48,321 nucleotides of DNA from a virus. This document shows, piece by piece, positions 8,922-37,929 of the stretch. The position numbers and the translations under genes are program-made. A model generated the notes under the pieces. That model did no database searches. It was not told where the DNA came from and was given only the letters and a program-made list of their open reading frames with translations. The stretch covers positions 380,878-429,198 of IMG/VR virus record IMGVR_UViG_3300025030_000039; one strand, 5' to 3'. Positions within the stretch are counted from its first letter, which is position 1. The number at the start of each line of letters is the position of its first letter.

Positions 8922-9729
8922 TATTTAATTTTAAGTTATAACTCCAAAAATAATTTTTGAATTTTTTATTTTTTCTAGCGACATATGAAATACTATTTCT
9001 TAAAAATCCAAGATTTTCATTTATTTCATTTGAAGAATTCCAAATTTTTAATAATTTCCAATTTAAATCATATTGATATATTTTTTTAATATATTTACTC
9101 ATAGCATTTTTAATATTATTTTTACCTTTTTCTGATCTAGGTTTACTCATATTTTGTATTCTTTCTTTTGTATGTAATTTATTTTTTAATGAATTAGAAA
9201 TATTTTTTTTTCTTTCTATTGAAAATATTTTATTTTTATTACCTTTTGATATTTTTTCTTTATGATCTTTTGATAATTTTTTACCGTACATTGGATTTTT
9301 TGATCCTTTTTTTAAATCAGATAATTTTTTTTTTAATTCTGGATTATTAGCATACATTATTTTTAATGATTCTGATTTTTTTCTACCTTCCTCTTTAGAT
9401 CCTTTCCTATACTTAAATGAATATGCTATAGGTAAAATATTAAATCCTTTATCTCTTTCATATGATTTATATAAATCTATATAATATTGTTCTCTCTCCT
9501 TTAATTGTTCTAAAAAAAATTCATCATAATATTCTAGTATTTCAATTTTAAAACATTCTTCTCCATATTTATTATAGCTTCTTTGTAATAATATTTGAGC
9601 TTTATTTTTTCTTAAAGCTTTAAAATGACCATTAATTCTTCTATTAATATCTTTACTTGAACCTATATAAATTTTATTATTAGCTTCACATATAATTTTA
9701 TATATGCCCGGTTTACTTTTATAATACAT
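8914..9729 (-). CDS. free-standing GIY-YIG homing endonuclease (Seg/I-TevI-like) with NUMOD3-type C-terminal DNA-binding repeats
   Basis: GIYKI...YIGSS...R..GH..AL N-terminal GIY-YIG motif; repeated G.K.S.E.K.KIS-like basic modules downstream; overlaps helicase gene by 8 nt. Confidence 0.65.
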   Translation of the reverse strand: MYYKSKPGIYKIICEANNKIYIGSSKDINRRINGHFKALRKNKAQILLQRSYNKYGEECFKIEILEYYDEFFLEQLKEREQYYIDLYKSYERDKGFNILPIAYSFKYRKGSKEEGRKKSESLKIMYANNPELKKKLSDLKKGSKNPMYGKKLSKDHKEKISKGNKNKIFSIERKKNISNSLKNKLHTKERIQNMSKPRSEKGKNNIKNAMSKYIKKIYQYDLNWKLLKIWNSSNEINENLGFLRNSISYVARKNKKFKNYFWSYNLKLNND

Positions 9730-9794: not shown

Positions 9795-10385
9795 TTAAAA
9801 TAGTCCCTTTTTATTTCCAAATTTTTTGAGCATTAACCAAATTATAAAAGCGTGACCCATACTTTTATCTTCATAATTTATAACGTCTTTAAAAGACATA
9901 GATTTTTTAATATGATTATATCCATCGAAATCTCTTAAATAAATATCTTTATCAGTTTCATTATATACATTTAAAAGTTGTTTAAATGCTTTAGATTTAA
10001 TTAAAGCGTTTGCATATAATGGAAGATATATTTTTTTTCTTGCATCAATATATCCTAATCTTTTATTATTCCACAATGCAAATAATGGTTTACGTCCTTT
10101 ACCCATTGGATATCTATAAGCTCTTATATCATTCCAACCTTTAATAGCCCATTCAAAATAAGTATTTTTGATATTATTATTTTCATCTATAAATTCATTA
10201 TATACTTTTGAAAACTGCCAAGCATTCTCGATATTTTTAGATACATAATTTTCATAAAGTTTAATTGGTCCTAAATAAAATGGACTTAATCCTTTAGTCC
10301 AATTCAATGATCTAGATGTAGTATTTATGTCTAAAGCATTTTCTGGAATTTCATCATCATATTTTGCTACAAATAAATTATTCAT
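9795..10385 (-). CDS. NADAR-like (YbiA/DUF1768-like) protein
   Basis: LSPFYLGPIKL...ENAWQFSKVY resembles the YbiA FSNF..WPIKV..SEHYFQAQKF core; later GKGRKPL...NKRLGY block; assignment from memory of family motifs. Confidence 0.4.
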   Translation of the reverse strand: MNNLFVAKYDDEIPENALDINTTSRSLNWTKGLSPFYLGPIKLYENYVSKNIENAWQFSKVYNEFIDENNNIKNTYFEWAIKGWNDIRAYRYPMGKGRKPLFALWNNKRLGYIDARKKIYLPLYANALIKSKAFKQLLNVYNETDKDIYLRDFDGYNHIKKSMSFKDVINYEDKSMGHAFIIWLMLKKFGNKKGLF

Positions 10386-10744
10386 TATTCTTTATTCTTT
10401 ATAAAAAAAAATTCTTCATCATTTTCATCTCTCATGCTATCTATTATACCTTTTTGTTTTAAAGTATATAAGTGCACGCATGAAAAAATTAATTGTAAAT
10501 CATTAACAGCAATTTTTTCATTTGTCCAAATAGTAATACAGTCTCCATTATTGATATAATTATCAAATACTTTTTGACCTATTATTGAAGTAATAGCAGC
10601 TTCATATACAATATCATTTGTATTAAGAGGTTCAATACAATTTTCATATGCATCATCTAATACCATATCTTTTATAACAGGTATTATACTCCTTAATACT
10701 TTTTGGACTTTTTTAGGATATATTGGTAAATCAAATTCATTCAT
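10385..10744 (-). CDS. hypothetical protein (119 aa)
   Basis: ORF only. Confidence 0.35.
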   Translation of the reverse strand: MNEFDLPIYPKKVQKVLRSIIPVIKDMVLDDAYENCIEPLNTNDIVYEAAITSIIGQKVFDNYINNGDCITIWTNEKIAVNDLQLIFSCVHLYTLKQKGIIDSMRDENDEEFFFIKNKE

Positions 10745-10746
10745 AT

Positions 10747-11973
10747 TTAATTATTTTTAGATTTTTCTCCTAAGTAACCGCCATGATGTCTTTTAGAATA
10801 ATCTTCTTTTGTAAAATTTATTTTTTTCATTAATTGAACAACTATAATATCTCCAATAACCATCATAGCGGTTGTTGAAGCAGTAGGTGTTAATCCTAAT
10901 GGACAAAGTTCTTCTTGTTCTCCCGTATAAAGTACAAAGTTAGCCAATTTAACTAATTCAGAATCTAAATTTCCAATTAATACAATAACTTTTAAATCAG
11001 AATAAAGATTATGTGCTAAATGAATAAATTCTATAACTTCTTTAGTTTTACCGGAATTAGAAATTAAAAATAAAACATCATTTTTTTGAATCATTCCCAT
11101 ATCACCATGCTGTGCTTCTGCTGCATGAATATATATAGCCGGAGTACCAGTTGAACTTAGTGTTGTTGCTATATTTAATCCAACTTGTCCAGCTTTTCCC
11201 ATTCCAGAAATGACTACCTTAGATCCTAATTCATGAATATGTTTATAAATTAAATTAATAACTTCTTCATAAGGATTATCTAATGGTATTTTTTTTATAG
11301 CATAAATTTCTTTATCTAATAAATCTTTTATTTCGTTATTTAAATTATTTTTAACTTTTATTCTTAATCTTTTTATATTTGTATTAACATCACCTAATTT
11401 AGCTATTGTAAATAAATTATTATAAGATAATAATAAATGAATACCTTTATAAATTTTATTTCCAGAATGTTTTCTATAAACAATAATATCATCATTTACT
11501 CTTTCATCTATTATAACATCGAATGAGGAAATTTTATAATCTATAATATCATTATCATATTTAACAATATTTAAATATTCTTTAAGATTATCATTAATAA
11601 AATTAAAAGTATTATTACTGATTACTATTATATTTCCAGGACCTATTCGAGATTCTATAGAAATAGAAGATCCAGCACTTATTATTTTTGATAAATATTT
11701 TTTTGCTAATAATTTTTTATCATTGATATCATCTAAAACTATATCAATATTTTTATCTTTTGTTAATGTTAATAATTCATTTATTAATGTATCTTTAACA
11801 TTAATTAAACTAAAATGTTTATCACATAAAAAGTTTGCTTCTATAATATCTAATTCTGGATATCCAGTTCTTATTATATTAGGTTCAGATTCATTAAAAT
11901 CAAAATATTTTATAATATTTTCATCATTTTTGACTCTAATTACAGATATAATTTGTTTTATTTTTTCTTCCAT
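10747..11973 (-). CDS. kdsD-like: arabinose-5-phosphate isomerase-like SIS-domain protein (KdsD/GutQ-type SIS in C-terminal half, no CBS pair; ~230-aa N-terminal region of unknown function)
   Basis: GMGKAGQVGLNIATTLSSTGTPAIYIHAAEAQHGDMGM...ISNSGKTKE...CPLGLTPTASTTAMMVIGD aligns closely with the E. coli KdsD SIS domain. Confidence 0.6.
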   Translation of the reverse strand: MEEKIKQIISVIRVKNDENIIKYFDFNESEPNIIRTGYPELDIIEANFLCDKHFSLINVKDTLINELLTLTKDKNIDIVLDDINDKKLLAKKYLSKIISAGSSISIESRIGPGNIIVISNNTFNFINDNLKEYLNIVKYDNDIIDYKISSFDVIIDERVNDDIIVYRKHSGNKIYKGIHLLLSYNNLFTIAKLGDVNTNIKRLRIKVKNNLNNEIKDLLDKEIYAIKKIPLDNPYEEVINLIYKHIHELGSKVVISGMGKAGQVGLNIATTLSSTGTPAIYIHAAEAQHGDMGMIQKNDVLFLISNSGKTKEVIEFIHLAHNLYSDLKVIVLIGNLDSELVKLANFVLYTGEQEELCPLGLTPTASTTAMMVIGDIIVVQLMKKINFTKEDYSKRHHGGYLGEKSKNN

Positions 11974-12680
11974 TTTATTAAAAGTTTATATAAATCTTCT
12001 TTAGTATCAATTCCTATATGATCAAAATGTGTTTCTACACCATAAATATTAAGTCCATTATCAAGCCATCTTAATTGTTCTAAACTTTCAGATTTTTCTA
12101 ATTCACTTTCAGATAATTGATTAATCTTAAACAATGCTTTATATGAAAACCCGTATATTCCTATATGTTTATATGGGTTATAATTATTTTGTTTTAAATT
12201 ATATGGTATTGGAGATCTACTAAAATATAAAATTCTTTTATTAGATGCTATAATTGCTTTAACTGTATTTTTATCTAAATATTCTTCTTTATCTTCTATC
12301 TTTTTATAAAGAGTTACAATATTTTTATTTTTTAACAGTTTACAAATATCATCTATACATGTTGGATTAATTTCGGGTTCATCTCCTTGTATATTTAAAT
12401 AATAATCATAATTATATTTTAAATATATTTCTATTAATCGTTCTGTTCCATTCTTATGATCTTTGTTTGTAAATTCTACATTACCATTAAATGATTTTAC
12501 TACATCATATATTCTTTGATCATCTGTTGCAACAATAACATTAGTTAATAATTTAGATTTTTTAACTTGTTCATAAACACATTGTATCATAGGTTTTCCA
12601 TTAATATCTATTAATGGTTTACCGGGTAATCTAGTAGAATTATAACGAGCTGGAATAACTCCTAAATATGTTTTATTCAT
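11958..12680 (-). CDS. kdsB: 3-deoxy-manno-octulosonate cytidylyltransferase (CMP-Kdo synthetase)
   Basis: IPARYNSTRLPGKPLIDINGKPMI, VIVATDD, GTERL, NIQGDEPEI match KdsB signature blocks. Confidence 0.7.
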   Translation of the reverse strand: MNKTYLGVIPARYNSTRLPGKPLIDINGKPMIQCVYEQVKKSKLLTNVIVATDDQRIYDVVKSFNGNVEFTNKDHKNGTERLIEIYLKYNYDYYLNIQGDEPEINPTCIDDICKLLKNKNIVTLYKKIEDKEEYLDKNTVKAIIASNKRILYFSRSPIPYNLKQNNYNPYKHIGIYGFSYKALFKINQLSESELEKSESLEQLRWLDNGLNIYGVETHFDHIGIDTKEDLYKLLIKWKKK

Positions 12681-12942
12681 ATTCTTTAAATGTGGGAGAA
12701 CACCCTAAATATATTGTATTTCTAATCATTTGCTTTTCATAATCTGCTAATCTTTTTTTATTAAAATTTGCTTCGATTATTTCATCACATCTTTTTTTAT
12801 CTATTGTATAATTTGTAAAGAAAAATTCTTGTTCTGTTTCTTTAGTTGCTACCATATTATCCCAATCTCCGACAGGATCTGTTTCTTTATAAAGATCTCT
12901 ATAAATATTTTCAATAATTATTAAAAGTTTTTTATCTCTCAT
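12673..12942 (-). CDS. hypothetical small protein (89 aa) between kdsB and kdsA
   Basis: ORF; not HAD-like, so not KdsC. Confidence 0.35.
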   Translation of the reverse strand: MRDKKLLIIIENIYRDLYKETDPVGDWDNMVATKETEQEFFFTNYTIDKKRCDEIIEANFNKKRLADYEKQMIRNTIYLGCSPTFKEYE

Positions 12943-13712
12943 TGTAATGCATTTTTAATACGTAAACATTTAACTAATATATCATATAGCTTATCTATAT
13001 GCAATATACTCGATGCATCCGATAAGCTCTCAGAAGGATTTGGATGTACTTCGAAAAATAATCCATCTACTCCTACTGCAGTAGCTGCTACTGCTAATGT
13101 TTCAATCATTTCAGGATTACCTCCTGTAGTATTTCCATTATTAGGTTTTTGAACAGAATGAGTACAATCCATAATTACTTTATCTGCATATCGTTTCATA
13201 ATTGGAATAGATGTCATATCCACAACTAAATCTTTATATCCAAATGAACTTCCTCTTTCTGTTAGCCATACTTCACCGGTTGAAACAGATTTAACTTTTT
13301 CTACAACATTTTTCATTGATTCAGGCGACATCCATTGTCCCTTTTTAACATTAACTATAGAATTAGTTTTACCTGCACTAATTAATAAATCAGTTTGTCT
13401 ACATAAAAATGCAGGTATTTGTAAATATGATACATATGAAGATGCTAATGCAACTTCTATAGTTTCATGCACATCTGTTATAACTGGAATATTATATTGT
13501 TCCTTAATGTTTTTAAGAATTTTTAATGCTTCTATATCTCCTATTCCTGTAAATGAATTTAGATCAGATCTATTTGCTTTTTTATAACTTGCTTTAAATA
13601 TTAAATCAACGTTTAAATCTTTAGTTATTTTTATTAATTTATTAACAATATAATATGTAATATCATTATTTTCTATAACACAAGGACCTGCTATTAAAAT
13701 TAAATTACTCAT
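12939..13712 (-). CDS. kdsA: 2-dehydro-3-deoxyphosphooctonate aldolase (Kdo-8-phosphate synthase)
   Basis: LIAGPCVIEN, QIPAFLCRQTDLL, KKGQWM, TERG, DCTHSVQ blocks characteristic of KdsA/DAHP-synthase family. Confidence 0.7.
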   Translation of the reverse strand: MSNLILIAGPCVIENNDITYYIVNKLIKITKDLNVDLIFKASYKKANRSDLNSFTGIGDIEALKILKNIKEQYNIPVITDVHETIEVALASSYVSYLQIPAFLCRQTDLLISAGKTNSIVNVKKGQWMSPESMKNVVEKVKSVSTGEVWLTERGSSFGYKDLVVDMTSIPIMKRYADKVIMDCTHSVQKPNNGNTTGGNPEMIETLAVAATAVGVDGLFFEVHPNPSESLSDASSILHIDKLYDILVKCLRIKNALQ

Positions 13713-14323
13713 ATCAATTTTTTAAATATTACTTCATTATTATTATATGACAATTTTTCATTTTGTTTATTAAATTTATGAACAAATCCACTTTCATTTA
13801 TAGTAGTATCTGTTATGATTTCGTATTTTGAAAATATATCAGAGTCACTAAATAAATAATTTGCATTATAAATAACTAAATATCCATTTATATTTAATAA
13901 TGAATCTAATTCATTAATCATGTCATTATACTTTTCAAACTCATAAATTCCTTTACTAGATAATACTTTTTCAGTTTCTGGCCATCTACATAAAACAGAC
14001 ATCGCAAAAATAATATCATATTTATGTTGTTTATGTTCATTTGTATCATACAAGAAAAAATTATTATCCTTATATTTATTTTTTGCTTTTTTTATTGCAT
14101 CAATATTAATATCAACACCATAAATATTTGAATTCTTAAAATACAATTCTTTTAATGTTTGTGTTTCTGCTCCTATTGAACATCCAAATGATAAAATTTT
14201 ATCAGCATCCTTTTTTAATTCTGATAATTTTAAAAAAATATTAGGATATCTATTATAATTTGTAACTATAGTACTTTGATGTAAATTATTCATATTAATT
14301 TTTATTTTTAAATGGACACACAT
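13709..14323 (-). CDS. class I SAM-dependent methyltransferase
   Basis: ILSFGCSIGAET (motif I), YGVDIN..AI (motif II), DIIFAMSVL (motif III). Confidence 0.5.
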   Translation of the reverse strand: MCVHLKIKINMNNLHQSTIVTNYNRYPNIFLKLSELKKDADKILSFGCSIGAETQTLKELYFKNSNIYGVDINIDAIKKAKNKYKDNNFFLYDTNEHKQHKYDIIFAMSVLCRWPETEKVLSSKGIYEFEKYNDMINELDSLLNINGYLVIYNANYLFSDSDIFSKYEIITDTTINESGFVHKFNKQNEKLSYNNNEVIFKKLI

Positions 14324-15080
14324 TATATAATTTATCTAAATCTATATCTAATTTATAGGGTTTATATAAATTAAATACACTAGATATACTAGATGAATTA
14401 TTAATTATTAATGGATTAGTATCATTTCTATTAACAGATCTAAAATAATCATTAAATTTAAATCCGGCACCTAACACAGCATCAGAAAATTTTATCCAAT
14501 AACTTGGAATTCCATAACTATCACCTGCTATTATTCCATGTAATGAACTAGATACTATCATTTTACATGATTTAATTTCATTAACAACTTTATTTATATC
14601 ATCTAAAATATTGATAATTTTTATATTAGATAAATCTTTAACATTATTTAACCATTCATTATTTTGATCTACGTAATGTGGAATAATTCCTAAATCATAT
14701 ATTTGTTCTACTTTAGGATTATAAAATATAGAATATAAAAGAGCAGGATCACCATATATTTCTGGGCATTTAATTCCTAATTGTATTAATCTATTTTTAG
14801 TTAAAGGTCCACGAACGGCATAAATATTTTTAGGAATAGATTTAACATTTCCATTTCTATTTATAAATCCAGATCCCCATATATTACAAGTTAAGTTAGC
14901 ATTATCCAAAATACTACCAATAACTAAAAATTTTTCATTATCATTATTAATCAAATTATATTCTACTTCTTTATTAGATATTAATTGTACAAGTAATGGA
15001 TTTAATGCATCACCCCAATTATTACCTTTAATAGATTTAAACCACCATAATGGTATTTTATTTATTATAATTTGCCCCAT
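14295..15080 (-). CDS. polysaccharide pyruvyl transferase (CsaB/WcaK family)
   Basis: N-terminal NWGDALNPLL and C-terminal SSSLHGIIAGDSYGIPS blocks typical of PS_pyruv_trans. Confidence 0.55.
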   Translation of the reverse strand: MGQIIINKIPLWWFKSIKGNNWGDALNPLLVQLISNKEVEYNLINNDNEKFLVIGSILDNANLTCNIWGSGFINRNGNVKSIPKNIYAVRGPLTKNRLIQLGIKCPEIYGDPALLYSIFYNPKVEQIYDLGIIPHYVDQNNEWLNNVKDLSNIKIINILDDINKVVNEIKSCKMIVSSSLHGIIAGDSYGIPSYWIKFSDAVLGAGFKFNDYFRSVNRNDTNPLIINNSSSISSVFNLYKPYKLDIDLDKLYNVCPFKNKN

Positions 15081-15880
15081 TCTTGTCCTATATTTCTAAT
15101 TATTGAGTGATCGGATGCTAATAAAACATCTTGTTTTTTTCTTTCAACTTGTAATTTTTCAACATTTTCTGCTACTCTATCTTCTTCAGTAAACTTATGT
15201 CTATAATATAAATGCATAGATAAAATATTATCGTCTTTTATAGATTTTGCTCCGCCTTTTGTGTTTAAATATTTAAAAAGTCTTCTATGGAAATCAGAAT
15301 CTTCATGTCCATATACTTTAAATCTTTCATCAAACCCTCCTATATTTAATACATTATCTTTGTGAGTTACTAACCATGGTGCAAATGGCATTGTCTGTTT
15401 TAAATTTTTAGTAGGGTTTGATTCTTCTAAAAAATAACCAGTTATAATTGGCATATTAGGTTCAACTGAAAATGCTGTTTTATTTCTAATTAACCACCAT
15501 TTTCCAGAAGTTAATACTATGTTTTTATTTTCAACATCTTTAAAATGTTCTAATGTTATACTTATAACATCTGAAAAATGAATTATATCACCATCACAAA
15601 AAGCTATTATATTTCCTTGAGCTTGTTTAATTCCAATATTTCTTGCATATCCTGGATTTCTAGAAATTATTTTTTCTTTACTTTTTATTACTTTTATATT
15701 AGAATATCTTTTTGTGATATCACTTAAATAATCATCGGTCCCATCTATCGATCCATCGTCAACAACAATAATTTCCCATTTATCTATAGGAGCTAATGTA
15801 AATAGCATTGATCTAACTGTTAAATCAACGTGCATTTTTCTATTATATGTTGGTATAATTATACTTAAAAAATCATTCAT
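15065..15880 (-). CDS. family 2 (GT-A) glycosyltransferase
   Basis: SIIIPTYN, IIVVDDGSIDGT, YARNIG, FCDGD (DxD). Confidence 0.65.
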   Translation of the reverse strand: MNDFLSIIIPTYNRKMHVDLTVRSMLFTLAPIDKWEIIVVDDGSIDGTDDYLSDITKRYSNIKVIKSKEKIISRNPGYARNIGIKQAQGNIIAFCDGDIIHFSDVISITLEHFKDVENKNIVLTSGKWWLIRNKTAFSVEPNMPIITGYFLEESNPTKNLKQTMPFAPWLVTHKDNVLNIGGFDERFKVYGHEDSDFHRRLFKYLNTKGGAKSIKDDNILSMHLYYRHKFTEEDRVAENVEKLQVERKKQDVLLASDHSIIRNIGQEWGKL

Positions 15881-15882
15881 AG

Positions 15883-16464
15883 TTAAAATTTATAGTTAAA
15901 TAATTTAATATCTTTTTCATATATTTCAGATACTAATTGTATACTTTCTTTATCATAATATACTTTATATGATTCGTATTCTTTAATACTTTTATTTATA
16001 TTTAAAAGATCTAAATTAAAAATATTTTTAAATTGATTATTTATATTTTCATGTTTATATACATTATTAATCATTAGTTTATTATCTTCATCATAAATAT
16101 ATTTATATTGATTTTTCCAACCTGGATGCCAAAATTTATCTGGATTATTTTTAAGTAATATTAAACACTCTTTAAATGTTAATCCTAATAATAAATCATA
16201 ATCTTTATGTTTAGTTTCATCTTCAGTTGAATGCCAATAACTTTTTTCCATTTTTGCATACTCATAGTTTGATACTACTCTATCCCAAGGATTTCTAACT
16301 ACTGCAAATTTAAAATAATTATTCCAATTATCAGGAAAAGTATCTTTATAATATTTCCAAGCTCTATGAAAAGATCTTTTCATATCTAAAATTTTAATAA
16401 TAGATGTACCTGCATTTTTAGGTATATGTATAAATATTGCTCTGTACTTATCTGATATTGGCAT
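15883..16464 (-). CDS. sulfotransferase (carbohydrate/HS2ST-like family)
   Basis: 5'-PSB-like IHIPKNAGTSI and 3'-PB-like VRNPWDRVVSNYEY. Confidence 0.55.
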   Translation of the reverse strand: MPISDKYRAIFIHIPKNAGTSIIKILDMKRSFHRAWKYYKDTFPDNWNNYFKFAVVRNPWDRVVSNYEYAKMEKSYWHSTEDETKHKDYDLLLGLTFKECLILLKNNPDKFWHPGWKNQYKYIYDEDNKLMINNVYKHENINNQFKNIFNLDLLNINKSIKEYESYKVYYDKESIQLVSEIYEKDIKLFNYKF

Positions 16465-17080
16465 AATTATTAATATTTATATTTTCATTAACTATTCCTA
16501 ATTTTGTTAACAAATATGATCTATCTTCTCTTTTCCAATATCCTATAAATTTTATACTTTTTCTCCTCATAAAAATCGTTTTAAACCCTGGAAATATTTC
16601 AAATATTTTATAAATATCATAACTTTGTAAATGATCTGGAGTTAATGGATTTTGATTATATGGAAATGAAAAATAAACATCATTTAAATTTTTCATCATA
16701 GTTTCTTTAAAATATATTAATGATTTATTATCTAAATGTTCTAGAACTTCTAATGCTATTAATAAATTACATTCTTTTAGAATTTCATTCGTTTGATCTA
16801 AATCTAATTTAATTAATGATAAATTTTTATATTTTCTAAAATATTCATTTCCATAATCTATAGCATCTTGAGCCATATCAAACCCTATAAATGTTAAATC
16901 AGGCCGTTTTGACGCTAAATATGCAGTTCCTACTCCTATTCCACATCCCATTTCTACTACTTTTCCTGATTTAGGTAAAAATCTTTCAGCAAGTTCATAT
17001 CTAAATTTAATATATGGAGCAATACTATCCCAATCAATTAATGTTGTTCTATATTGTCCATCTGGTACATTTTTATTCAT
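16448..17080 (-). CDS. class I SAM-dependent methyltransferase
   Basis: VVEMGCGIGVGT motif I; LIALEVLEHL. Confidence 0.55.
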   Translation of the reverse strand: MNKNVPDGQYRTTLIDWDSIAPYIKFRYELAERFLPKSGKVVEMGCGIGVGTAYLASKRPDLTFIGFDMAQDAIDYGNEYFRKYKNLSLIKLDLDQTNEILKECNLLIALEVLEHLDNKSLIYFKETMMKNLNDVYFSFPYNQNPLTPDHLQSYDIYKIFEIFPGFKTIFMRRKSIKFIGYWKREDRSYLLTKLGIVNENININNYANIR

Positions 17081-17083
17081 ATT

Positions 17084-18082
17084 TTATTCAAAGTATTTTA
17101 ATGTTTTAATAATATCAGGATTTCCTGAATTAAACTGTAAATTTAATAATGATGTTAAATATTTATTAATATTTGATTCATTAATTTTATAATTTAAAAA
17201 ATTTCTTTGTTCTTCTATATTTTCCGAAGTTACTTCATATGTAACTCCTTTGTTTGAAAAATAATTTATACCATAAGTCATAATAGGTTTATGAAATAAT
17301 AACATTTCATTAATAATAGTAGAATTAATTGCTATTATACCATTAGAATAATAACCCCATGATATACTATTTAAACTTTCTGTATATTGTGTATTTGTAT
17401 ATTTTTGACATTCTTTTAAAATGTTCTGTTTATTAATAATACTATCTTTTGGATGAGGTTTAATAATTATTAATTTATCTTGAAATAACATAACAATATG
17501 TTTAATAAAACTTTCCATATCTTTAAAATATGGAGAATATTTAACTATTTGTGTATCAGTTTTTATTTGTAATGGTATAAATAAATAATTATTTGCATCA
17601 GGTTTTTTTATGTCTTTAATATATTCATTTTGTTTTATACGTATTAAATTTAAATTTATATTTTCATCTATAATATTTTTTTCTACATGTTCTGAACCAC
17701 CATTAGTACCTTTTCTATCTATTACAAATATTCCTTTTTGTGGAAACCAACCGTGTTCACAATATATTATTTTTGTGAATTTTTTTAATTCATTTAAAAT
17801 AATAGGTTGATGTCCACGCTCTTCATCATCAAAATCTCCATTCCAAACAATTACATGCGTAGCATTTAATGATTTAATTTTTTGTATAACTTCAATATCA
17901 CTATTAAAAGAAAAAGAATTAGATTTCGTCATTAAATTATTATCGAAAAGCCGCGGAGGTTTAATATGATTTCTGCATATAAAATATTTTTGATATGGTA
18001 TGCCCCAATATAAATTTTTAATTAATCCTGGCAAACTATTATGCCATGATAAAAAAATTATGATTTTATTGTCTCTTTCCAT
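17084..18082 (-). CDS. KpsC/KpsS-family (Capsule_synth) glycosyltransferase, probable beta-Kdo transferase
   Basis: YLFIPLQIKTDTQI, LIIIKPHPKD and INSTIINEMLLFHKPIMTYGINYF match the conserved blocks of capsule polysaccharide biosynthesis proteins KpsC/KpsS. Confidence 0.55.
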   Translation of the reverse strand: MERDNKIIIFLSWHNSLPGLIKNLYWGIPYQKYFICRNHIKPPRLFDNNLMTKSNSFSFNSDIEVIQKIKSLNATHVIVWNGDFDDEERGHQPIILNELKKFTKIIYCEHGWFPQKGIFVIDRKGTNGGSEHVEKNIIDENINLNLIRIKQNEYIKDIKKPDANNYLFIPLQIKTDTQIVKYSPYFKDMESFIKHIVMLFQDKLIIIKPHPKDSIINKQNILKECQKYTNTQYTESLNSISWGYYSNGIIAINSTIINEMLLFHKPIMTYGINYFSNKGVTYEVTSENIEEQRNFLNYKINESNINKYLTSLLNLQFNSGNPDIIKTLKYFE

Positions 18083-20568
18083 AATTGTACATATTGTTTA
18101 ACGTGATTTTCCCATGTTAAATTTTTAACTTTTTCGCTGTTGATTAATCTATTTTCTTCTAAAATTGATCTATTTTTATTAATATTATTAAGTGCATTAA
18201 CAAACCCTTCGACATTATTTTGTTCAAATATGTATTCAGAACTTAAATGTTCAGGTACTTCTCCAACTCTTGTTGATAAAACAGTATGACCATATTTCAT
18301 AGATTCTATTAATGGTAGTGGAGTACCTTCATATTTAGAAGTAATTAAAACCACATCTATATTTTTATATAAATTAACAAAATTTCCATCTTTATTAGTT
18401 ATTACTTCAAATCCTAATGCTTTAAGTTTATTAATAATTATATCCATATTAGGTGAAAGAATAGTAAATTTAAAAGATTTATTATCTATAGCATTTGCAA
18501 TGGTTAATAATTTTTCTTCATTTTTTACTCCATCACTATAAGATCGTCCAATATATCCTATATTTATTTTATTTTGTGAATTAATTGAATCTTTAGTAAT
18601 AATAAAGTCGCTTACTCCTAATGGTATATACCTAACATCTATATTGCTAAGACGACTTTTAATATAATTATATTGTTCTTTTGAAGTACATACTATAGTT
18701 TTAAACTTATCCATATTTTTAATTCTATAATTTGTGTTTGCTCTAGAAATATCAAACAAACTGTCATGGATCATATGTATTCCTTTTCTTAATACATTAT
18801 TTTTAATATTATATTTCATTCTTTCAAAATATAGTATAGATGTTCTATACACAGGTCTCCAATGTTGATATACATCACAATCCATTAAAGGATTAATGGA
18901 AGGTATTATAGTAAATTCTGGAGCATATTTTTGATATTCTTTAATCATAGAGCTAAAAACCCAGCCCCAATGATTAGACATAACCATATTTATAATTGGT
19001 TTATTTATAGATTTTGCTTCTAATCTTTTCCTATTAGATTCTTCTTGTAATTTTTTAAAAAATATTTCTTTTTCTGCAACAGTTTTTAATGTATTACTAT
19101 ATAACTCATTATCATTAAATAATTTTTCATCAATATTTTTGATATGATAATTATTTTCATTAAACAGTACTTTTCTATTAGGTATACTATTATAGTTTGT
19201 AATACTTTTTTGTGTAGTCGAAACTTTATTTTTAAATCTTCTAGAGGCTTGATAATGAATAATAACTGGATGTATATTTGGATATAATTTTTTCATCAAA
19301 TCAAAAATAAATGTATATTCAGGAGGAAGATTTTTAACTATCAATCCATTATTTTTCATTTTATCCATAGCTTTACCAAGGTTCCATTGTTCCATTGTTT
19401 TAGCATTAGGACCTTCTGCATTATTTTGATCTCTCCATATTCTACATAATTCTCGAGTTCTTTCATTATTTTCCATATATATGGTTCCACTAAGGCATTC
19501 ATTTTCTCTCCATCTAAAATCTTGAAATCTAACTGCAACATCAGCTGTATAATTTATAAAAAGCTCGGGAACTCTTTGTATAATTGCATCACAATCAATA
19601 TATAACAATCTTTTATCTTTAAATTCATCTAGAACATAAAGCATAAATTCTGCTTTAAATCTAGTATTTTTTTGCCAATCACCTAAATTTTCTATACCTG
19701 CAAAATAATAATTTAGTTCAAATTTATCACATGATGCAATAGTTTTTTTAGCTTCTTCTTCATATGGAGTATTAATGGTAAAATATCCTACAACTAATAT
19801 ATCAGATAATCTATTTTTATTATTATAATTACATATAATAGATTTAATATTGCCTATATTATTTGTGATATTTATTTTATTATTTTTATCATCAGTAGTT
19901 TTCACTTTTTCATTATTATGTATTATATTAATATGTTTAAATTTATTTTTTGCATTGCTTAAAGATTTTTCAAAATTAGTTTTTATTCTTAAATCACTTA
20001 TATTATTAGTATTTAAATCATAAATTATAATTTCTTGATAATCCATCAATAATCCCAATTGTATAGCAGAATAATTACTACTATTTCCATTAATAAAATT
20101 ATTTTTATCATTTGAAAATTCATTATTATTTAATGATTTAGATTCTAAAATATAATCAAATTTATGTAATTTATCATAAACTAATCCATGTTTATGATCA
20201 TAAAAATGCCCATTATGAGAAGATAAATTAGAATTTATATTATTTAAAATAAATATCTTCTTAATTGAATTTTCAATATCTAATTTATTTAAATTTGAAT
20301 AATTAATAGTTAAAAAAATATCAACTCTTTTTATATTATTAGTTGATATATTACTAGCTAATATATCATATTCTTCTATATTAACTAATGAACTAATTTT
20401 AGAATATGATAAATTACCACATAAAATAATAAGTTTATTTCTTTTTTTAACGGGTAACATATTTAAAATATTTGAATTATTTAAATTTTCATTTTTTTTA
20501 CATAATTTTTTTGTATGAATATTTTTACTTAGAATTTGCGCATTTATTTTTAAAAAGTTCTGTTTCAC
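18058..20568 (-). CDS. large multidomain glycosyltransferase: Asn-rich N-terminal region, central GT-A-like domain (DxD YIDCDAI), C-terminal GT-B (GT4-like) domain
   Basis: LLYIDCDAIIQRV nucleotide-sugar transferase-like DxD; C-terminal EGTPLPLIESMKYGHTVLSTRVGEVPE GT4/GT1 signature. Confidence 0.55.
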   Translation of the reverse strand: MKQNFLKINAQILSKNIHTKKLCKKNENLNNSNILNMLPVKKRNKLIILCGNLSYSKISSLVNIEEYDILASNISTNNIKRVDIFLTINYSNLNKLDIENSIKKIFILNNINSNLSSHNGHFYDHKHGLVYDKLHKFDYILESKSLNNNEFSNDKNNFINGNSSNYSAIQLGLLMDYQEIIIYDLNTNNISDLRIKTNFEKSLSNAKNKFKHINIIHNNEKVKTTDDKNNKINITNNIGNIKSIICNYNNKNRLSDILVVGYFTINTPYEEEAKKTIASCDKFELNYYFAGIENLGDWQKNTRFKAEFMLYVLDEFKDKRLLYIDCDAIIQRVPELFINYTADVAVRFQDFRWRENECLSGTIYMENNERTRELCRIWRDQNNAEGPNAKTMEQWNLGKAMDKMKNNGLIVKNLPPEYTFIFDLMKKLYPNIHPVIIHYQASRRFKNKVSTTQKSITNYNSIPNRKVLFNENNYHIKNIDEKLFNDNELYSNTLKTVAEKEIFFKKLQEESNRKRLEAKSINKPIINMVMSNHWGWVFSSMIKEYQKYAPEFTIIPSINPLMDCDVYQHWRPVYRTSILYFERMKYNIKNNVLRKGIHMIHDSLFDISRANTNYRIKNMDKFKTIVCTSKEQYNYIKSRLSNIDVRYIPLGVSDFIITKDSINSQNKINIGYIGRSYSDGVKNEEKLLTIANAIDNKSFKFTILSPNMDIIINKLKALGFEVITNKDGNFVNLYKNIDVVLITSKYEGTPLPLIESMKYGHTVLSTRVGEVPEHLSSEYIFEQNNVEGFVNALNNINKNRSILEENRLINSEKVKNLTWENHVKQYVQLWKETIKS

Positions 20569-21185
20569 ATTAATGTAATATTATTTGCTTTATTTATATA
20601 TTTTGTAAAATATGTTTTTTCCACAATAGATGAATGACTTTTATGATAAATAGATCTAAATACATTTTTTTCATTTTGTTTAAAATTTTCAAAAAAATCA
20701 AATCCATATAAGTTTAATTCTAAAAAATTTATTCTAGTAACTAAAAAATTAAAAGTAGCAGCTCCAGTGGAAGGAATAAACATTATTTTAAAATCTTTTC
20801 TTCTAAATTCATCATAAAACTCTTTACTACATATATAAACGTTATTAAATAATTCTAAAAGTTTATTCTCTCTATCTGAATATCCAGTTTTCGACCATCT
20901 ACTTAATTGAAGAATATATTTAGCATTTGCAGCTTTACATAATCTAACAGCATTGGAAACAGTATTCATTTGTGGAACAAATATATGTGTTTTTTCTCCT
21001 AATGCATTTTTATATTTTGGTAATGCATCTATAGAATAATTTAATCTTATTATTATATCGTTTGAATCAATAGATTTTCCATTATTTTCATTTAATAATT
21101 TAGTTGAATTTCCAACCAAAGCTATTTTTTTTCCATTACAATATTCTTGTATTTTTTCTAAAGGAATAGATATATTTTTATTCAT
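20565..21185 (-). CDS. sialyltransferase-like glycosyltransferase (sialylmotif L- and S-like blocks; candidate CMP-ulosonic-acid transferase)
   Basis: KIALVGNSTKLL..G.SIDSNDIIIRLN (L-motif-like) and IPSTGAATFNFLV...LYGFDFF (S-motif-like). Confidence 0.45.
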   Translation of the reverse strand: MNKNISIPLEKIQEYCNGKKIALVGNSTKLLNENNGKSIDSNDIIIRLNYSIDALPKYKNALGEKTHIFVPQMNTVSNAVRLCKAANAKYILQLSRWSKTGYSDRENKLLELFNNVYICSKEFYDEFRRKDFKIMFIPSTGAATFNFLVTRINFLELNLYGFDFFENFKQNEKNVFRSIYHKSHSSIVEKTYFTKYINKANNITLM

Positions 21186-21260
21186 ATGGTAATACTTGGT
21201 AATAGCATATTTTAATTAATATGGTAAATTATATATTATTTATGCATACATCAAGATGCA

Positions 21261-21300
21261 TTATATAAACACCGAATGCTAACAATAATGTTAGCATTTG
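21261..21300 (-). terminator. rho-independent terminator after hsp20-like gene
   Basis: ccgaatgctaaca / tgttagcatttgg 13-bp stem (one G-U), loop ATAA, followed on minus RNA by UGUUUAUAUAAUG. Confidence 0.5.
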
Positions 21301-21324
21301 GAATATTTTAAATTTTAAGCTATA

Positions 21325-21681
21325 TTATAAAATTTTTACTTTCTTTGATTTTAGTTTTTCTTTTAAAGGACATTTAATACTTAAAACTCCATTTTTTATA
21401 GAAGCCTCTATATTATCTAAATCTACGTCCCCTTTTACTTTAAATTTCTTTTCAAATTTCTTTTTTAAACCTATTTCTTCTCCAGAGTAAGAAATTAAAA
21501 TAATATCACCTTCAGTTTTTAAATCTATATCCGATTTATCATATCCGGGAATAAGTACATCTAAAATATAATAATCATCTTCTTTTTTAACTTCATATGA
21601 AGGTGAAGTTATTGTATTTACACTTGTTAAAAGTGAATTAAATAATTCATTTGCTAAATCATTAAATGTTGTTGTTGTCAT
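21325..21681 (-). CDS. small heat-shock protein (Hsp20/alpha-crystallin family)
   Basis: YYILDVLIPGYDKSDIDL...GEEIGLKKKFEKKFKV...DNIEASIKNGVLSIKCP alpha-crystallin domain pattern. Confidence 0.6.
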   Translation of the reverse strand: MTTTTFNDLANELFNSLLTSVNTITSPSYEVKKEDDYYILDVLIPGYDKSDIDLKTEGDIILISYSGEEIGLKKKFEKKFKVKGDVDLDNIEASIKNGVLSIKCPLKEKLKSKKVKIL

Positions 21682-21780
21682 AATTTAAAATTTTTTATAT
21701 TAATTTATAAAATATATTCAAAAATTATACCAAAAGTATATTTTAATTTAAAAATGACTATTCGTCATATATTTGACAAA

Positions 21781-21824
21781 AATGACAAATTAAAATAGGA
21801 ATCTAGATTATAAATTCCTATTTT
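21781..21824 (-). terminator. rho-independent terminator after 21832..22089
   Basis: aaaataggaat (21792-21802) / attcctatttt (21814-21824) perfect 11-bp stem, 11-nt loop, minus RNA continues AAUUUGUCAUUUUUG. Confidence 0.5.
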
Positions 21825-21831
21825 AAAGTTA

Positions 21832-22089
21832 TTATGCTTGTACTTCAGCATTAACTACTGGAGTTGAAGCTTCTGCTTCTTTTCTTGGTTTAAATACTCT
21901 AACTGCTTTAGATACTAATTCAGCATCTTCTAACGAATATACACCAGCTTTTTGAGCAAGTGATGCTCCTTGAATTAAAATACCAATTGCTTGTTCTTGA
22001 GTTAACTCATCTTTAAAAGGATCAAATTGTTTTTCTTTACTTTCCATAATTTTAAAATTTTTATTTGTAATTACATTTATTATATGCAA
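21832..22089 (-). CDS. hypothetical small acidic protein (85 aa; may start at internal Met MESKEK)
   Basis: ORF with locally higher GC/codon quality; bracketed by terminator hairpin. Confidence 0.45.
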   Translation of the reverse strand: MHIINVITNKNFKIMESKEKQFDPFKDELTQEQAIGILIQGASLAQKAGVYSLEDAELVSKAVRVFKPRKEAEASTPVVNAEVQA

Positions 22090-22107
22090 ACCTAATTATA
22101 AGTTTCA

Positions 22108-23196
22108 TTAAATATTTTTAATTATTATTTTAGATATATATTCAACATCATTTTCAGTTAGTTCAGAATACATTGGTATAGCTAATACTTCTTTTGACAA
22201 ATTTAATGCAATTGGCATTTCTATATTTCCATAAAGTTTTTTAATTAATGTAAATTCTGAACATATAGGATAAAAATAAGGTCTACTTGATACATTTTTA
22301 ACTAATAAATCATTTTTAATTTTATCTCTATTTGGATGTTTAATTATCATATAGATATAATTATAATGAATATTTTTATTATCATATTTGGTAAATATTA
22401 TATCATTTGGAAGATATTTTTTATAAAACTCAAATACATTCTTTCTTTTTGATATTATTAAATCCAAATCATCTAATATACATAAACCCATAGATGCTTG
22501 AAATTCATTCATTTTACCGTTTGTTCCTGGATATATTACGTCATATTCTTCATTAAATCCAAAGTTACTGAATAGTTTAGATATTCTAAATATTTCTGGA
22601 TTATTAAATGTAATTAATCCTCCTTCTATTGTATGAAATACTTTTGTAGCATGAGTTGAAAAAACAGAAACATCTCCAAAATTACCTATACCAATATTAT
22701 TAATAGTAACTCCAAACATATGAGCTGAATCATATATTGTATACAAATCATATTTTTTAGCAATAATTTCTATCTTTTCTATATCTACAGGATTACCATA
22801 AATATGAACTGGTAATATAGCAGCTGTATTTTTTGTTATTTTTTCTTCTATTTTATTAATATCTATATTACCATCATTAATGTTAACATCAATAAATATA
22901 GGAATATTTCCAGAATTAATAATAGATGTTATGGTTGCAGCAAATGTAAAAGGAGTAGTTATTATTTCTTTTCCTTTTATTCCTAAAATAGAAATAGTAG
23001 CTTCTAAAGATGTTGTTCCATTTAAAAAAGGATACACATAATTTACACCTAAATAATTTTTAGCAGAATTAATATATTCATTATGAATAGGACCAAAATT
23101 AGTAAGCCAAGATTCTTTCCAAATTCTATTTAAATATTTAATATATTTCTTTTTATCAGGTAAATAAGGTTTAACTACAGGTATATGTTTTTTCAT
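22108..23196 (-). CDS. DegT/DnrJ/EryC1/StrS-family PLP-dependent sugar aminotransferase
   Basis: GTTSLEATISILGI.GKEIITTPFTFAAT...IPIFID...AILPVHIYGNP.D...DSAHMFG...STHATKVF (PLP-Lys) pattern. Confidence 0.6.
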   Translation of the reverse strand: MKKHIPVVKPYLPDKKKYIKYLNRIWKESWLTNFGPIHNEYINSAKNYLGVNYVYPFLNGTTSLEATISILGIKGKEIITTPFTFAATITSIINSGNIPIFIDVNINDGNIDINKIEEKITKNTAAILPVHIYGNPVDIEKIEIIAKKYDLYTIYDSAHMFGVTINNIGIGNFGDVSVFSTHATKVFHTIEGGLITFNNPEIFRISKLFSNFGFNEEYDVIYPGTNGKMNEFQASMGLCILDDLDLIISKRKNVFEFYKKYLPNDIIFTKYDNKNIHYNYIYMIIKHPNRDKIKNDLLVKNVSSRPYFYPICSEFTLIKKLYGNIEMPIALNLSKEVLAIPMYSELTENDVEYISKIIIKNI

Positions 23197-29601: not shown

Positions 29602-29809
29602 TCAATATTTTAGTTTTATGTTTTAAATTAATTTCTTCTTCAAATGATCTATATTGAAACCAATAATCTCCAAAAGATTTTTCTTGACCTTCCTTCCAAT
29701 TCATTTCTATATGTATAATATCATTTATTTCATTTATATTTTTTATACACAATAAAGGATATTGTTTTACTAACTCTGATATATTTTCTATTAATTTATT
29801 ATTTTTCAT
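29588..29809 (-). CDS. hypothetical small protein (73 aa)
   Basis: ORF only. Confidence 0.3.
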   Translation of the reverse strand: MKNNKLIENISELVKQYPLLCIKNINEINDIIHIEMNWKEGQEKSFGDYWFQYRSFEEEINLKHKTKILIDYV

Positions 29810-32318: not shown

Positions 32319-32375
32319 TATATTCTTATTTTATTATTCAGACCTATCTCAAACTATATTAAATTTAAGATCTAA

Positions 32376-34965: not shown

Positions 34966-34991
34966 ATTTTAAATATTTTTCTTGTGTTATT

Positions 34992-35609: not shown

Positions 35610-35656
35610 AATTTTTATTAATTTTATTATATTATATGCACAATATTATATTTTGT

Positions 35657-35950: not shown

Positions 35951-35951
35951 C

Positions 35952-37928: not shown

Positions 37929-37929
37929 T

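Follow-up and report, generated by a model that had tools for sequence, protein, structure and literature searches.

Genes for CMP-Kdo supply, Kdo-type glycosyltransferases, and glycan decoration in a hypervariable locus of uncultured large phages

Gene clusters for the supply of activated Kdo (3-deoxy-D-manno-octulosonate) are known from several giant viruses, namely, Cafeteria roenbergensis virus (CroV; crov265-267), Fadolivirus, and polar Mesomimiviridae, on in silico evidence only (PMC9614988, PMC10570341). As described in the sections of these accounts that treat Kdo, genes for arabinose-5-phosphate isomerase, Kdo-8-phosphate synthase, and CMP-Kdo synthetase (CMP, cytidine monophosphate) stand together with genes for glycosyltransferases (GTs) and sugar methyltransferases, and decoration of the virion has been proposed. 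Here, we analyze a locus with the same supply genes in a 48,321-nucleotide stretch of viral DNA (positions 380,878 to 429,198 of IMG/VR record IMGVR_UViG_3300025030_000039; the whole stretch is referred to below as the window), for which a prediction made from the sequence alone had placed a phage-borne glycan island at positions 10747 to 23196. Comparisons of sequence and fold have shown both the predicted enzyme repertoire of this island and its tight linkage. New in this locus is that Kdo supply is linked to three classes of predicted Kdo-type transferases and to phage-encoded sulfation, at a conserved yet hypervariable locus of an uncultured phage lineage.

The hosts of the giant viruses are eukaryotes without Kdo, whereas the window belongs to a tailed phage, and the Kdo sections of the two accounts mention no retaining beta-Kdo GT, GT29-like enzyme, or sulfotransferase. 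The fibril clusters of Mimivirus, Megavirus, and Tupanvirus, as far as PMC9614988 describes them in its part on these viruses, also resemble the island, combining sugar-nucleotide synthesis with single- and multidomain GTs, a pyruvyltransferase, and methyltransferases, with sulfate adenylyltransferase/adenosine 5'-phosphosulfate (APS) kinase in Tupanvirus. They are clade specific and variable, all of their enzymes are soluble, and their product sits on virion proteins. However, these clusters provide rhamnose, viosamine, bacillosamine, and other sugars and no Kdo, their hosts are eukaryotes, and their glycans have been shown experimentally.

Among phages, cyanophage S-SCSM2R carries kdsA/kdsB with 13 GTs, reported as a first for cyanophages (PMC12801897), and one or more Kdo supply genes occur in the Tara viral genome TARA_ERS478052_N000008 (PMC5332604). 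Both are large marine T4-like phages with KdsA, with or without KdsB, and many GTs, but the S-SCSM2R paper describes no such operon organization, and KdsA is only 43% identical to that of the window. In mycobacteriophages, soluble GTs encoded by the phage add sugars to subunits of the capsid and tail tube within the cytoplasm (Freeman et al. 2023, cited in PMC12619734); as summarized there, these systems differ in comprising two to four GTs without sugar-nucleotide synthesis, Kdo, sulfation, or pyruvylation, in hosts of Gram-positive type. The citing "Moraphage" paper (PMC12619734) reports core GTs in another large aquatic phage lineage and does not mention Kdo. The expectation that a cluster of this kind would be unusual in a bacteriophage needs qualification: Kdo supply in phages had already been reported, and the whole island type is indeed absent from GenBank phage records, yet it recurs in uncultured large aquatic phages.

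The window matches bases 118150 to 166470 of LR756500.1 exactly. This is an unannotated "uncultured phage" GenBank record of 462,018 bp (24.3% GC; about 626 open reading frames [ORFs]), in which the 12.45-kb interval occupies bases 128896 to 141345. Thirteen of the 15 ORFs of at least 85 amino acids (aa) in the interval exceed Pfam gathering thresholds, either for the families of the original prediction or for Hsp20; all of the genes it named lie where it had placed them, on the minus strand, and above these thresholds. Fourteen minus-strand genes, overlapping or with gaps of no more than 3 nucleotides (nt), form a tight array from 21185 down to 9795, which reaches 950 bases past the lower boundary of the interval (coordinates are those of the window unless another record is named, and all window genes given below are on the minus strand). 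The interval, predicted to be about 12 kb of contiguous glycan genes, also contains genes for Hsp20, a conserved small protein, and an 89-aa protein, none of which is a sugar enzyme.

Three of the four steps leading to CMP-Kdo are encoded in this array. The Kdo-8-phosphate synthase KdsA (12939 to 13712; PF00793 [DAHP_synth_1], 202 bits, E 1e-59) passes NCBIfam equivalog models (344 bits versus a cutoff of 242 and 334 versus 314); since DAHP synthase models score far below their cutoffs, we rejected its assignment to the aromatic pathway. The CMP-Kdo synthetase KdsB (11958 to 12680; PF02348 [CTP_transf_3], 181 bits, E 3e-53) likewise passes its NCBIfam models (276 bits versus 193 and, for TIGR00466, 188 versus 155), and a role of this cytidylyltransferase in sialic or pseudaminic acid synthesis was rejected because PseF reaches 48 bits against a cutoff of 206, whereas the Kdo models pass. 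The third enzyme, arabinose-5-phosphate isomerase (10747 to 11973), consists of a SIS domain (approximately aa 211 to 408; 61.4 bits) preceded by an N-terminal extension of approximately 210 aa. Its best NCBIfam models are KpsF/GutQ (E 3e-46) and KdsD (E 9e-45); it stays below both cutoffs because this single-SIS-domain protein has no CBS domains. The C-terminal 209 residues match PDB 3ETN (E 6e-71), whose deposition names a putative phosphosugar isomerase with a role in capsule formation and which we take to be the characterized single-domain arabinose-5-phosphate isomerase of Bacteroides fragilis. The SIS domain also matches the CBS-less 5UQI, presumably an Escherichia coli isomerase, and, in 2XHZ, the SIS domain of an arabinose-5-phosphate isomerase.

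In related phages, the SIS proteins stand alone and measure 193 to 220 aa, whereas that of the window carries the additional N terminus. As no canonical start codon is present between residues ~189 and 228, where the stand-alone SIS genes of the relatives begin, the fusion is real. The extension matched no family and no homologue in a search that also missed the phage's own protein, making this a weak negative. CroV fuses a Kdo-8-phosphate phosphatase to its isomerase, as stated in the giant-virus accounts, but for the phage extension we rejected such a function: no haloacid dehalogenase (HAD) motif is visible by eye, and neither a Pfam match nor homologues were obtained. Nor did the phosphatase KdsC find a match among the scanned ORFs, and regular expressions for HAD motifs, run over the genome, gave nothing convincing. 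The supply, predicted to be complete, thus comprises the isomerase, KdsA, and KdsB, i.e., three of four steps, and a host phosphatase or an unrecognized phage phosphatase must act on Kdo-8-phosphate. A weak candidate is a HAD-type protein encoded outside the interval (24981 to 25544) with subthreshold matches alone (Acid_PPase, E 0.0095; pyrimidine 5'-nucleotidase, E 8e-4), visible DxD and DD motifs, and no homologue seen in the related locus L058. The cysteine in the AGPCVIE motif close to the N terminus of KdsA presumably occupies the position that marks metal-dependent Kdo-8-phosphate synthases (asparagine in the E. coli type); together with the Bacteroides-like isomerase, it hints that the supply genes may not derive from an enterobacterial-type lineage. 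Hints about the host of the phage are limited to this isomerase and its similarity to what we take to be a Bacteroides enzyme.

Three features define the retaining beta-Kdo GT superfamily (PMC10148158): the aspartate nucleophile of an invariant QXXXD motif, the histidine of an HP motif, from which the departing CMP receives its proton, and a glutamate in the N-terminal domain that serves as the general base. The protein encoded at 17084 to 18082 (Capsule_synth, 55.7 bits), a single module of 332 aa, is related to the KpsC/KpsS/WbbB enzymes of this superfamily. We gathered and aligned 15 homologues with 45 to 53% identity; the resulting family profile matches KpsC (6MGD; E 5e-7) and WbbB (5FA0; E 4e-6) at 12 to 19% identity, and the protein has the highly modified GT-B architecture common to both. 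Q172-I-K-T-D176 is invariant in the 15 homologues and aligns with QVESD of KpsC and QVEDD of WbbB; H210-P211 is equally invariant and aligns with the HP of both enzymes. E109, within an EHGW motif, is invariant in the phage family and is a candidate for the glutamate base. On the strength of the profile match to solved enzymes and of the invariant QXXXD and HP motifs, we accept the protein as a predicted retaining beta-Kdo transferase of a distinct subfamily, which would pass Kdo from CMP-beta-Kdo to its acceptor with retention, via a covalent Asp-Kdo adduct. The KpsC/KpsS-type Kdo transferase of the original prediction is thus borne out by Pfam, profile, fold, and catalytic motifs, and HMM (hidden Markov model), profile, and fold searches all support the Kdo enzymes as well.

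KpsC/KpsS (GT107), WbbB (GT99), and KrkA (GT140) have their modified GT-B fold, QXXXD nucleophile, and HP motif in common with the phage protein, whose coupling to further GT modules resembles that in WbbB and KrkA. The phage protein differs from these enzymes in its low identity, its single module, its phage origin, and the lack of accompanying KpsMTED or Wzm/Wzt genes. The features of a group 2 capsule system, i.e., a dual-module KpsC, a separate KpsS, and KpsMTED, are not found here: the protein has one module, and a hydropathy scan of the genome, with Pfam searches on its hits, revealed no ABC-2/KpsM-type exporter. The subfamily is rare, with approximately 16 protein clusters among 5.8 billion, and no GenBank phage record besides LR756500.1 contains it. 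Two short-peptide-pattern scans of 185,579 species-representative genomes detected no relative, and a pattern scan of viral contigs located it on one IMG/VR contig (L068; UViG_3300008255_000278, 40% GC). On that contig, a 676-aa ORF (9962 to 11992) joins a beta-Kdo GT, 37% identical to that of the window, to a GT4 domain and is followed by a homologue of the window's phosphoesterase gene; the fusion supports a putative functional link between the beta-Kdo GT and GT4. A further relative occurs on a Logan contig with 43% GC (L062, SRR26992429; 1 to 12730), where genes for a methyltransferase, a sulfotransferase, a beta-Kdo GT (45% identical), a GT29-like protein, a Nucleotid_trans GT-A, and a pyruvyltransferase share one orientation and adjoin genes for an acyltransferase_3/SGNH membrane protein, an arylsulfotransferase, and a short-chain dehydrogenase. 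L062 may represent a cellular counterpart or source of the phage cassette.

The second Kdo-type transferase is a 206-aa GT29-like protein (20565 to 21185), for which a sialyltransferase motif had been predicted; it exceeds the threshold of PF00777 (Glyco_transf_29; 37.8 bits versus 23) and, together with four homologues, retains sialyl motifs L and S. VGN...ID..D..R.N, PS.G, and H....E are invariant in the five proteins, and alignment with ST3Gal-I shows both motif L (VGNS...IDSHD.V.R.N) and motif S (PSTG...L.GF). A profile of the family matches ST3Gal-I best (2WML; E 2.6e-9), followed by ST8Sia-III, ST6Gal-I, and ST6GalNAc-II, in each case over motifs L and S. The phage family does not retain the cysteines, typical of GT29, that would form the disulfide of motifs L and S. 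No type II membrane anchor is visible by eye, and the homologues have a core of 190 to 217 aa; we regard the protein as a predicted soluble, minimal GT29-fold enzyme and a divergent relative of the family. Since the locus supplies CMP-Kdo as its sole CMP-sugar and family scans of the locus found no genes for sialic acid synthesis, its donor is likely to be CMP-Kdo, making it a candidate inverting Kdo transferase. A precedent exists in the plant GT29 protein RCKT1, a putative CMP-beta-Kdo transferase for rhamnogalacturonan II for which CMP-Kdo instead of CMP-sialic acid has been proposed as the donor (PMC11288761). The two proteins share the GT29 fold and this proposed donor, but RCKT1 is a Golgi membrane protein, whereas the phage enzyme consists of the soluble core without an anchor.

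The adjacent 836-aa protein (18058 to 20568, starting with GTG at 20568 or ATG at 20460) had been described as a GT-A/GT-B fusion. Both of these modules are present, but the two-part architecture does not hold, since a putative MptE/GT42-like module precedes them. The N module (approximately aa 30 to 190) was recognized through relations between family profiles: it has no Pfam match of its own, but homologues that it matches at E 3e-11 hit PF01973 at E 3e-5, which is below the threshold, and the family profile hits CstII weakly (E 0.007). The middle module (approximately aa 250 to 450) passes the Nucleotid_trans threshold (PF03407) and has a DxD motif and the fold of a retaining GT-A, and the C module (approximately aa 520 to 836) is a GT-B of the GT4 type according to Pfam (Glycos_transf_1/Glyco_trans_1_4). 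The best structural neighbors of the middle module are A64R of Paramecium bursaria chlorella virus 1 (the top match, which acts on a capsid protein), LH3, UGGT, the Skp1 galactosyltransferase, glycogenin, and Mimivirus R699; these neighbors glycosylate proteins or act on protein-bound glycans. We also considered this module as a WaaZ-type Kdo transferase and rejected this idea, as precomputed matches in homologues were only "faint" or "weak" and the module fits Nucleotid_trans and GT-A folds that use nucleoside diphosphate (NDP)-hexoses. The N and middle parts together (MptE+GT-A) exist as a free-standing protein of approximately 500 aa that forms more than 224 protein clusters. It is absent from GenBank phage records besides LR756500.1, and contigs that encode it reach 160 to 280 kb and carry T4-type genes, one of them both Gp23 and a prohead protease.

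The array therefore encodes three transferase modules of the CMP-ulosonic acid type (retaining beta-Kdo GT, GT29-like, and putative MptE/GT42-like) and three NDP-sugar transferase modules, i.e., the retaining GT-A, the GT4, and an inverting GT-A of family GT2 (15065 to 15880; PF00535 [Glycos_transf_2], 84 bits). To these are added enzymes of decoration, all predicted at the outset and all upheld by their Pfam scores: a carbohydrate sulfotransferase (15883 to 16464; PF03567 [Sulfotransfer_2], 48.3 bits versus 22), a polysaccharide pyruvyl (ketal) transferase (14295 to 15080; PF04230 [PS_pyruv_trans], 61.3 bits versus 25.3; 43 to 46% identical to orthologues in L059, L064, and L065), two methyltransferases dependent on S-adenosylmethionine (13709 to 14323, Methyltransf_31, 44.5 bits versus 27; 16448 to 17080, Methyltransf_12, 34.9 bits versus 30), and an NDP-keto-sugar aminotransferase of the DegT/DnrJ/EryC1 type (22108 to 23196; PF01041, 280 bits). 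The best NCBIfam models of the aminotransferase are DesI, PseC, and LegC, each below its equivalog cutoff. For the 4,6-dehydratase that would feed it, a motif search of the genome gave just one extended short-chain dehydrogenase/reductase, at 244 kb (LR756500.1, 244358 to 245311), which to our eyes resembles a UDP-glucuronate decarboxylase/UDP-xylose synthase. Together with an ABC permease at LR756500.1 376951 to 377721, it may provide further sugar-nucleotide or anion-uptake functions.

The sulfotransferase is 47% identical to its L058 orthologue, and its PKNAGTS and RNPWDRVVS motifs presumably bind the 5' and 3' sides of 3'-phosphoadenosine 5'-phosphosulfate (PAPS). The genome also encodes an APS kinase (PF01583, E 2e-55; LR756500.1, 112794 to 113300) outside the window and 16 kb from the island. 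It is 56% identical to the APS kinase located at the island end of L058, a position also occupied in L079, and it supports a working sulfation step. Regular expressions for ATP sulfurylase motifs, a crude search over the genome, gave no hit. The neighbors of the APS kinase gene encode a NADAR-domain protein and a polynucleotide kinase/phosphatase-like protein.

The same blueprint recurs in at least ten independent metagenomic contigs and was seen in L058, L059-61, L064-67, L079, L080, L081, L082, L083, and a 282-kb contig carrying P0054. It begins with a sigma factor, a PD-(D/E)XK nuclease, PhoH, thioredoxin, and amidase genes, and Hsp20, and continues with a conserved small ORF, the GT29-like gene, and the MptE+GT-A gene. 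A variable part follows, which draws on GT2, GT4, GT9, GT10, GT11, GT25, and GT-D-like transferases, methyltransferases, sulfotransferase, pyruvyltransferase, DegT, epimerase/dehydratase, and acetyltransferase; SIS, KdsA, and KdsB genes, sometimes followed by APS kinase, close the locus. The island of the window is one allele of this hypervariable locus with conserved ends, and its beta-Kdo GT is among the variable genes. In all ten related loci examined, the signature transferases are accompanied by the supply cassette. On the contig carrying P0054, the island abuts the genes for the Gp23 capsid protein and prohead protease, and that of L079 comes after a gene for a collagen-repeat protein.

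Directly upstream of the island, every related locus that we aligned, including one without an Hsp20 neighbor, has a small ORF of 63 to 91 aa. That of the window encodes 71 aa (21832 to 22047), and its relatives are found at L058 6941 to 7132, L060 695 to 937, L064 4118 to 4384, L066 5906 to 6181, L079 9700 to 9897, and L080 9685 to 9909. The seven sequences have 39 to 46% identity and combine a helical core (QA..VLIQA..IAQ.KGAY.LEDA) with a variable, acidic tail containing Pro and Thr. The protein has no assigned function, with no Pfam, PHROG, or PDB match and no GenBank phage record besides LR756500.1, and could be a partner, regulator, or acceptor. A conserved inner part of the glycan, containing Kdo, is probably made by the constant genes (this small ORF, those for the GT29-like and MptE+GT-A proteins, and the Kdo cassette), and a strain-specific outer part is probably made by the variable genes (in the window, those for the beta-Kdo GT, GT2, and the pyruvyl-, sulfo-, and methyltransferases).

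The original prediction had noted no apparent Wzx, Wzy, or ABC exporter, and this holds across the whole 462-kb genome in the hydropathy scan of all ORFs. Only three proteins have at least four strongly hydrophobic segments, namely, a tape-measure-like protein, a cation-efflux protein, and the ABC permease mentioned above, which is of the binding-protein-dependent type. By this crude scan, with Pfam searches on the three hits, the genome contains no flippase, polymerase, ligase, or polysaccharide exporter, and no multihelix membrane protein is encoded in or near the island. The membrane flippases, transferases, acyltransferases, and polymerases that characterize phage seroconversion modules (Gtr, Oac, and Wzy/Iap) are thus missing.

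Considering these data, we propose a cytoplasmic assembly line for an acidic, Kdo-containing glycan. The SIS-domain isomerase would provide arabinose-5-phosphate, which KdsA would condense with phosphoenolpyruvate to Kdo-8-phosphate; after a dephosphorylation that the locus does not encode, KdsB would form CMP-Kdo. This donor would feed the sialyltransferase-fold enzymes and the beta-Kdo GT, the NDP-sugar transferases would extend the chain, and sulfate, a pyruvate ketal, and methyl groups would finish it. Attached to a structural protein of the phage, such a glycan would form an anionic coat, comparable to the fibril and capsid glycans of giant viruses. A virion protein is the acceptor that we tentatively favor, with a confidence that falls a little short of even. 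Soluble enzymes, the lack of any detected export function in the genome, and the assembly of virions in the cytoplasm argue for it, as do the structural neighbors of the middle GT-A, the top one of which modifies a viral capsid protein, and the position of the island next to structural genes in two relatives. It also agrees with the types of parts shared by the virion-glycan clusters of giant viruses (PMC9614988).

Several observations weigh against a virion acceptor. The sequence names neither an acceptor protein nor a time of expression, and an acceptor does not follow from the fold neighbors of a GT-A. It is chiefly from cell surface polysaccharides that sulfo- and pyruvyltransferases of these families are known. 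The immediate neighbors of the island in the window are not recognizably structural by Pfam or PHROG, and the cassette of L062, beside its membrane acyltransferase_3/SGNH gene, looks like a cellular surface-polysaccharide locus. Finally, the acceptors of all characterized retaining beta-Kdo transferases are lipid-linked glycans that are bound for export (PMC10148158). A broader version of the proposal, which we consider possible and hold with less confidence, is that uncultured large T4-like aquatic phages of a widespread lineage coat their virions with a strongly anionic, strain-variable glycan, with the soluble GT29-like and Maf/GT42-like enzymes of sialyltransferase fold placing the first Kdo on a phage protein and, in the present phage, a beta-Kdo extension as well as sulfate, pyruvate ketal, and methyl groups being added. 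If true, both Kdo-based glycosylation of a protein and a sulfated glycan on the virion would be seen for the first time in a bacteriophage, and the hypervariable "serotype" locus would encode a phage equivalent of the fibril glycocalyces of giant viruses.

Why large marine phages often carry "LPS" (lipopolysaccharide) or "cell-wall" genes has been under debate for two decades, and the locus, a compact operon that links donor supply (CMP-Kdo and, via APS kinase, PAPS) to three Kdo-type transferase classes and three decorations, gives this question a testable form. With the product on the virion, tailed phages and giant viruses would both make a complex glycocalyx, which would matter for adsorption and for the stability and aggregation of particles, as well as for grazing in the ocean; with the product on the host, the locus would represent an unusually elaborate, exporter-free hijack of envelope assembly. 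Either way, the retaining beta-Kdo transferase subfamily and the minimal GT29-fold transferase offer new soluble enzymes for Kdo glycoengineering.

Remodeling of the host envelope is the strongest competitor of the virion hypothesis, a serious possibility that we nonetheless rate as doubtful. In this scenario, the glycan is built or capped on a host lipid carrier, either an undecaprenyl-diphosphate-linked O antigen or a phosphatidylglycerol-Kdo capsule primer, and exported by a host ABC transporter or ligase; superinfection exclusion, avoidance of progeny readsorption to the infected cell or its debris, or protection from grazers could be the effect. All members of the beta-Kdo GT superfamily named above, KpsS, KpsC, WbbB, and KrkA, work in ABC transporter-dependent, lipid-linked pathways, and the coupling of a multimodule GT to the beta-Kdo GT, including the L068 fusion, mirrors the architecture of WbbB. 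O-antigen and capsule loci, too, have a hypervariable center with conserved flanks, and L062 resembles a cellular counterpart of the cassette. Published readings of phage LPS and cell wall genes likewise favor an envelope role (PMC12801897, PMC5332604). However, flippases, polymerases, ligases, exporters, and further membrane proteins that serve glycan pathways were not detected in the scan of the 462-kb genome. Known phage seroconversion modules depend on such membrane proteins. Most related islands, moreover, lack the beta-Kdo GT, so that it is not the common initiating step; its rarity compared with the MptE+GT-A protein (approximately 16 versus more than 224 clusters) makes a KpsS-like lipid initiation unlikely as a common first step. 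The peptide-pattern scans of species genomes, which found no relative of the subfamily, also weigh against an envelope pathway.

Metabolic support of the host is improbable. Here, the Kdo supply would sustain host LPS (lipid A-Kdo) and the outer membrane during a long infection, and the neighboring transferases would be unrelated to it. KdsA, often with an adjacent KdsB, does occur without other island genes on many IMG/VR contigs and in cyanophage S-SCSM2R; IMG/VR contains 56 KdsA loci, about half of them with KdsB next to KdsA. In the window, however, the supply genes share one overlapping array with the three CMP-ulosonic acid-type transferase modules, cassette and signature transferases are found together in ten of ten related loci examined, and no WaaA (GT30) transferase of Kdo to lipid A is present.

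Still less probable, to a degree that makes it hard to credit, is a glycan attached to modified bases of the phage genome, even though the window contains a cluster of candidate machinery for DNA hypermodification (30776 to 40729). It encodes a T4 beta-glucosyltransferase-like N domain (30776 to 32032), a thymidylate synthase-like candidate deoxynucleoside monophosphate hydroxymethylase (33448 to 34329), a weak thymidylate kinase-like protein (34329 to 34742), an NTP_transf_3 nucleotidyltransferase (35952 to 36698), a 612-aa fusion of CofD and phosphomannomutase-like parts (37930 to 39768), and a guanylate kinase-like protein (40040 to 40729), and viral GTs reportedly use a variety of glycans for the hypermodification of DNA (Pyle et al. 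2024, as cited in PMC12619734). This cluster is, however, separate from the island, at a distance of 7 to 17 kb, and the island enzymes belong to families that act on polysaccharides and glycoconjugates. In the relatives examined, the islands do not adjoin a thymidylate synthase-like gene; that of L082 lies approximately 8 kb upstream, past the sigma factor gene. We know of no DNA that carries Kdo, sulfate, or a pyruvate ketal.

An assembly chimera, in which a bacterial island was misjoined into a phage contig, might be suspected from the bacterial type of the Kdo enzymes and the presumed B. fragilis origin of the nearest SIS domain, but its probability is negligible, since GC content, GC skew, and coding strand are alike in island and flanks, the island starts 129 kb into the 462-kb record, and the order of sigma factor, PD-(D/E)XK nuclease, Hsp20, and island repeats in independent JGI, ENA/Tara, and Logan assemblies. 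The island DNA is phage DNA and not host DNA, and the caveat raised with the original prediction, that the locus might prove to be host DNA on a chimeric contig, is ruled out by composition, strand, synteny, and the exact match to LR756500.1. Along the window, GC content is 18 to 30% throughout, with all sizable ORFs on the minus strand; in LR756500.1, this strand holds nearly all genes from approximately 20 kb to approximately 420 kb, a 400-kb single-strand block with 22 to 24% GC. The window is marked as part of a tailed phage by genes for a T4 gp52-type topoisomerase II subunit, a sigma factor, a Sir2 protein, a T4 beta-glucosyltransferase-like protein, and a GIY-YIG/NUMOD3 homing endonuclease and, 5 kb past its end, for an 1801-aa tape-measure-like protein with repeated hydrophobic segments. 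The nearest relatives of the topoisomerase are from huge uncultured phages (54 to 56% identity), and identity to cultured jumbo phages is approximately 35%.

Upstream of the array, the DegT gene is set apart from the tight array by the small ORF, the Hsp20 gene, and a hairpin. DegT genes lie within the variable island part in L079, L081, and L083, and the position of the window's DegT gene upstream of Hsp20 is a lineage-specific addition. Hsp20 (21325 to 21681; PF00011, 42.8 bits) has the same position in L058, L060, L061, L064, L066, L080, and L081 but not in L079, L082, and L083; it is a conserved neighbor of the island and probably stands outside the pathway. Between its gene and the glycan operon lies the strong 13-bp hairpin (21272 to 21301), terminator-like on the minus strand, in a region with six terminator-like sites versus 1.6 expected. 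A promoter scan was uninformative in this DNA with 22% GC (166 sites versus 155 expected). Within the array, an 89-aa ORF between kdsA and kdsB (12673 to 12942) has no family match and no assigned function; small ORFs at the same kdsA/kdsB position in L058 have no detectable similarity to it. Beyond the lower boundary of the interval, an ORF of 119 aa (10385 to 10744), also without an assigned function or a Pfam or PHROG match, lies 2 nt from the SIS gene. Its stop is overlapped by 1 nt by the start of the last gene of the array (9795 to 10385), which encodes a DUF6939 protein (PF22075, E 1e-9) with no assigned role and no homologue seen in L058.

Elsewhere in the window, a tRNA cluster (306 to 672) comprises Trp-CCA, Val-TAC, Glu-TTC, and His-GTG. 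The GIY-YIG/NUMOD3 homing endonuclease gene (8914 to 9729) has a DEAD-box/XPD-like helicase gene on one side and the glycan array's end on the other, and the Sir2-family protein is encoded at 29799 to 30494, near the sigma factor. The topoisomerase II gene is split over three ORFs (45000 to 47722). The first of these (47183 to 47722) encodes the first ~83 residues of the TopoIV-A domain and an N-terminal intein splicing region; the second (46229 to 47131) encodes a separate DUF7487/DUF7479 protein, possibly a homing endonuclease; and the third (45000 to 46232) encodes the C-terminal splicing end of an intein, followed by the remainder of the topoisomerase. This arrangement resembles a split intein whose halves are separated by a free-standing ORF.

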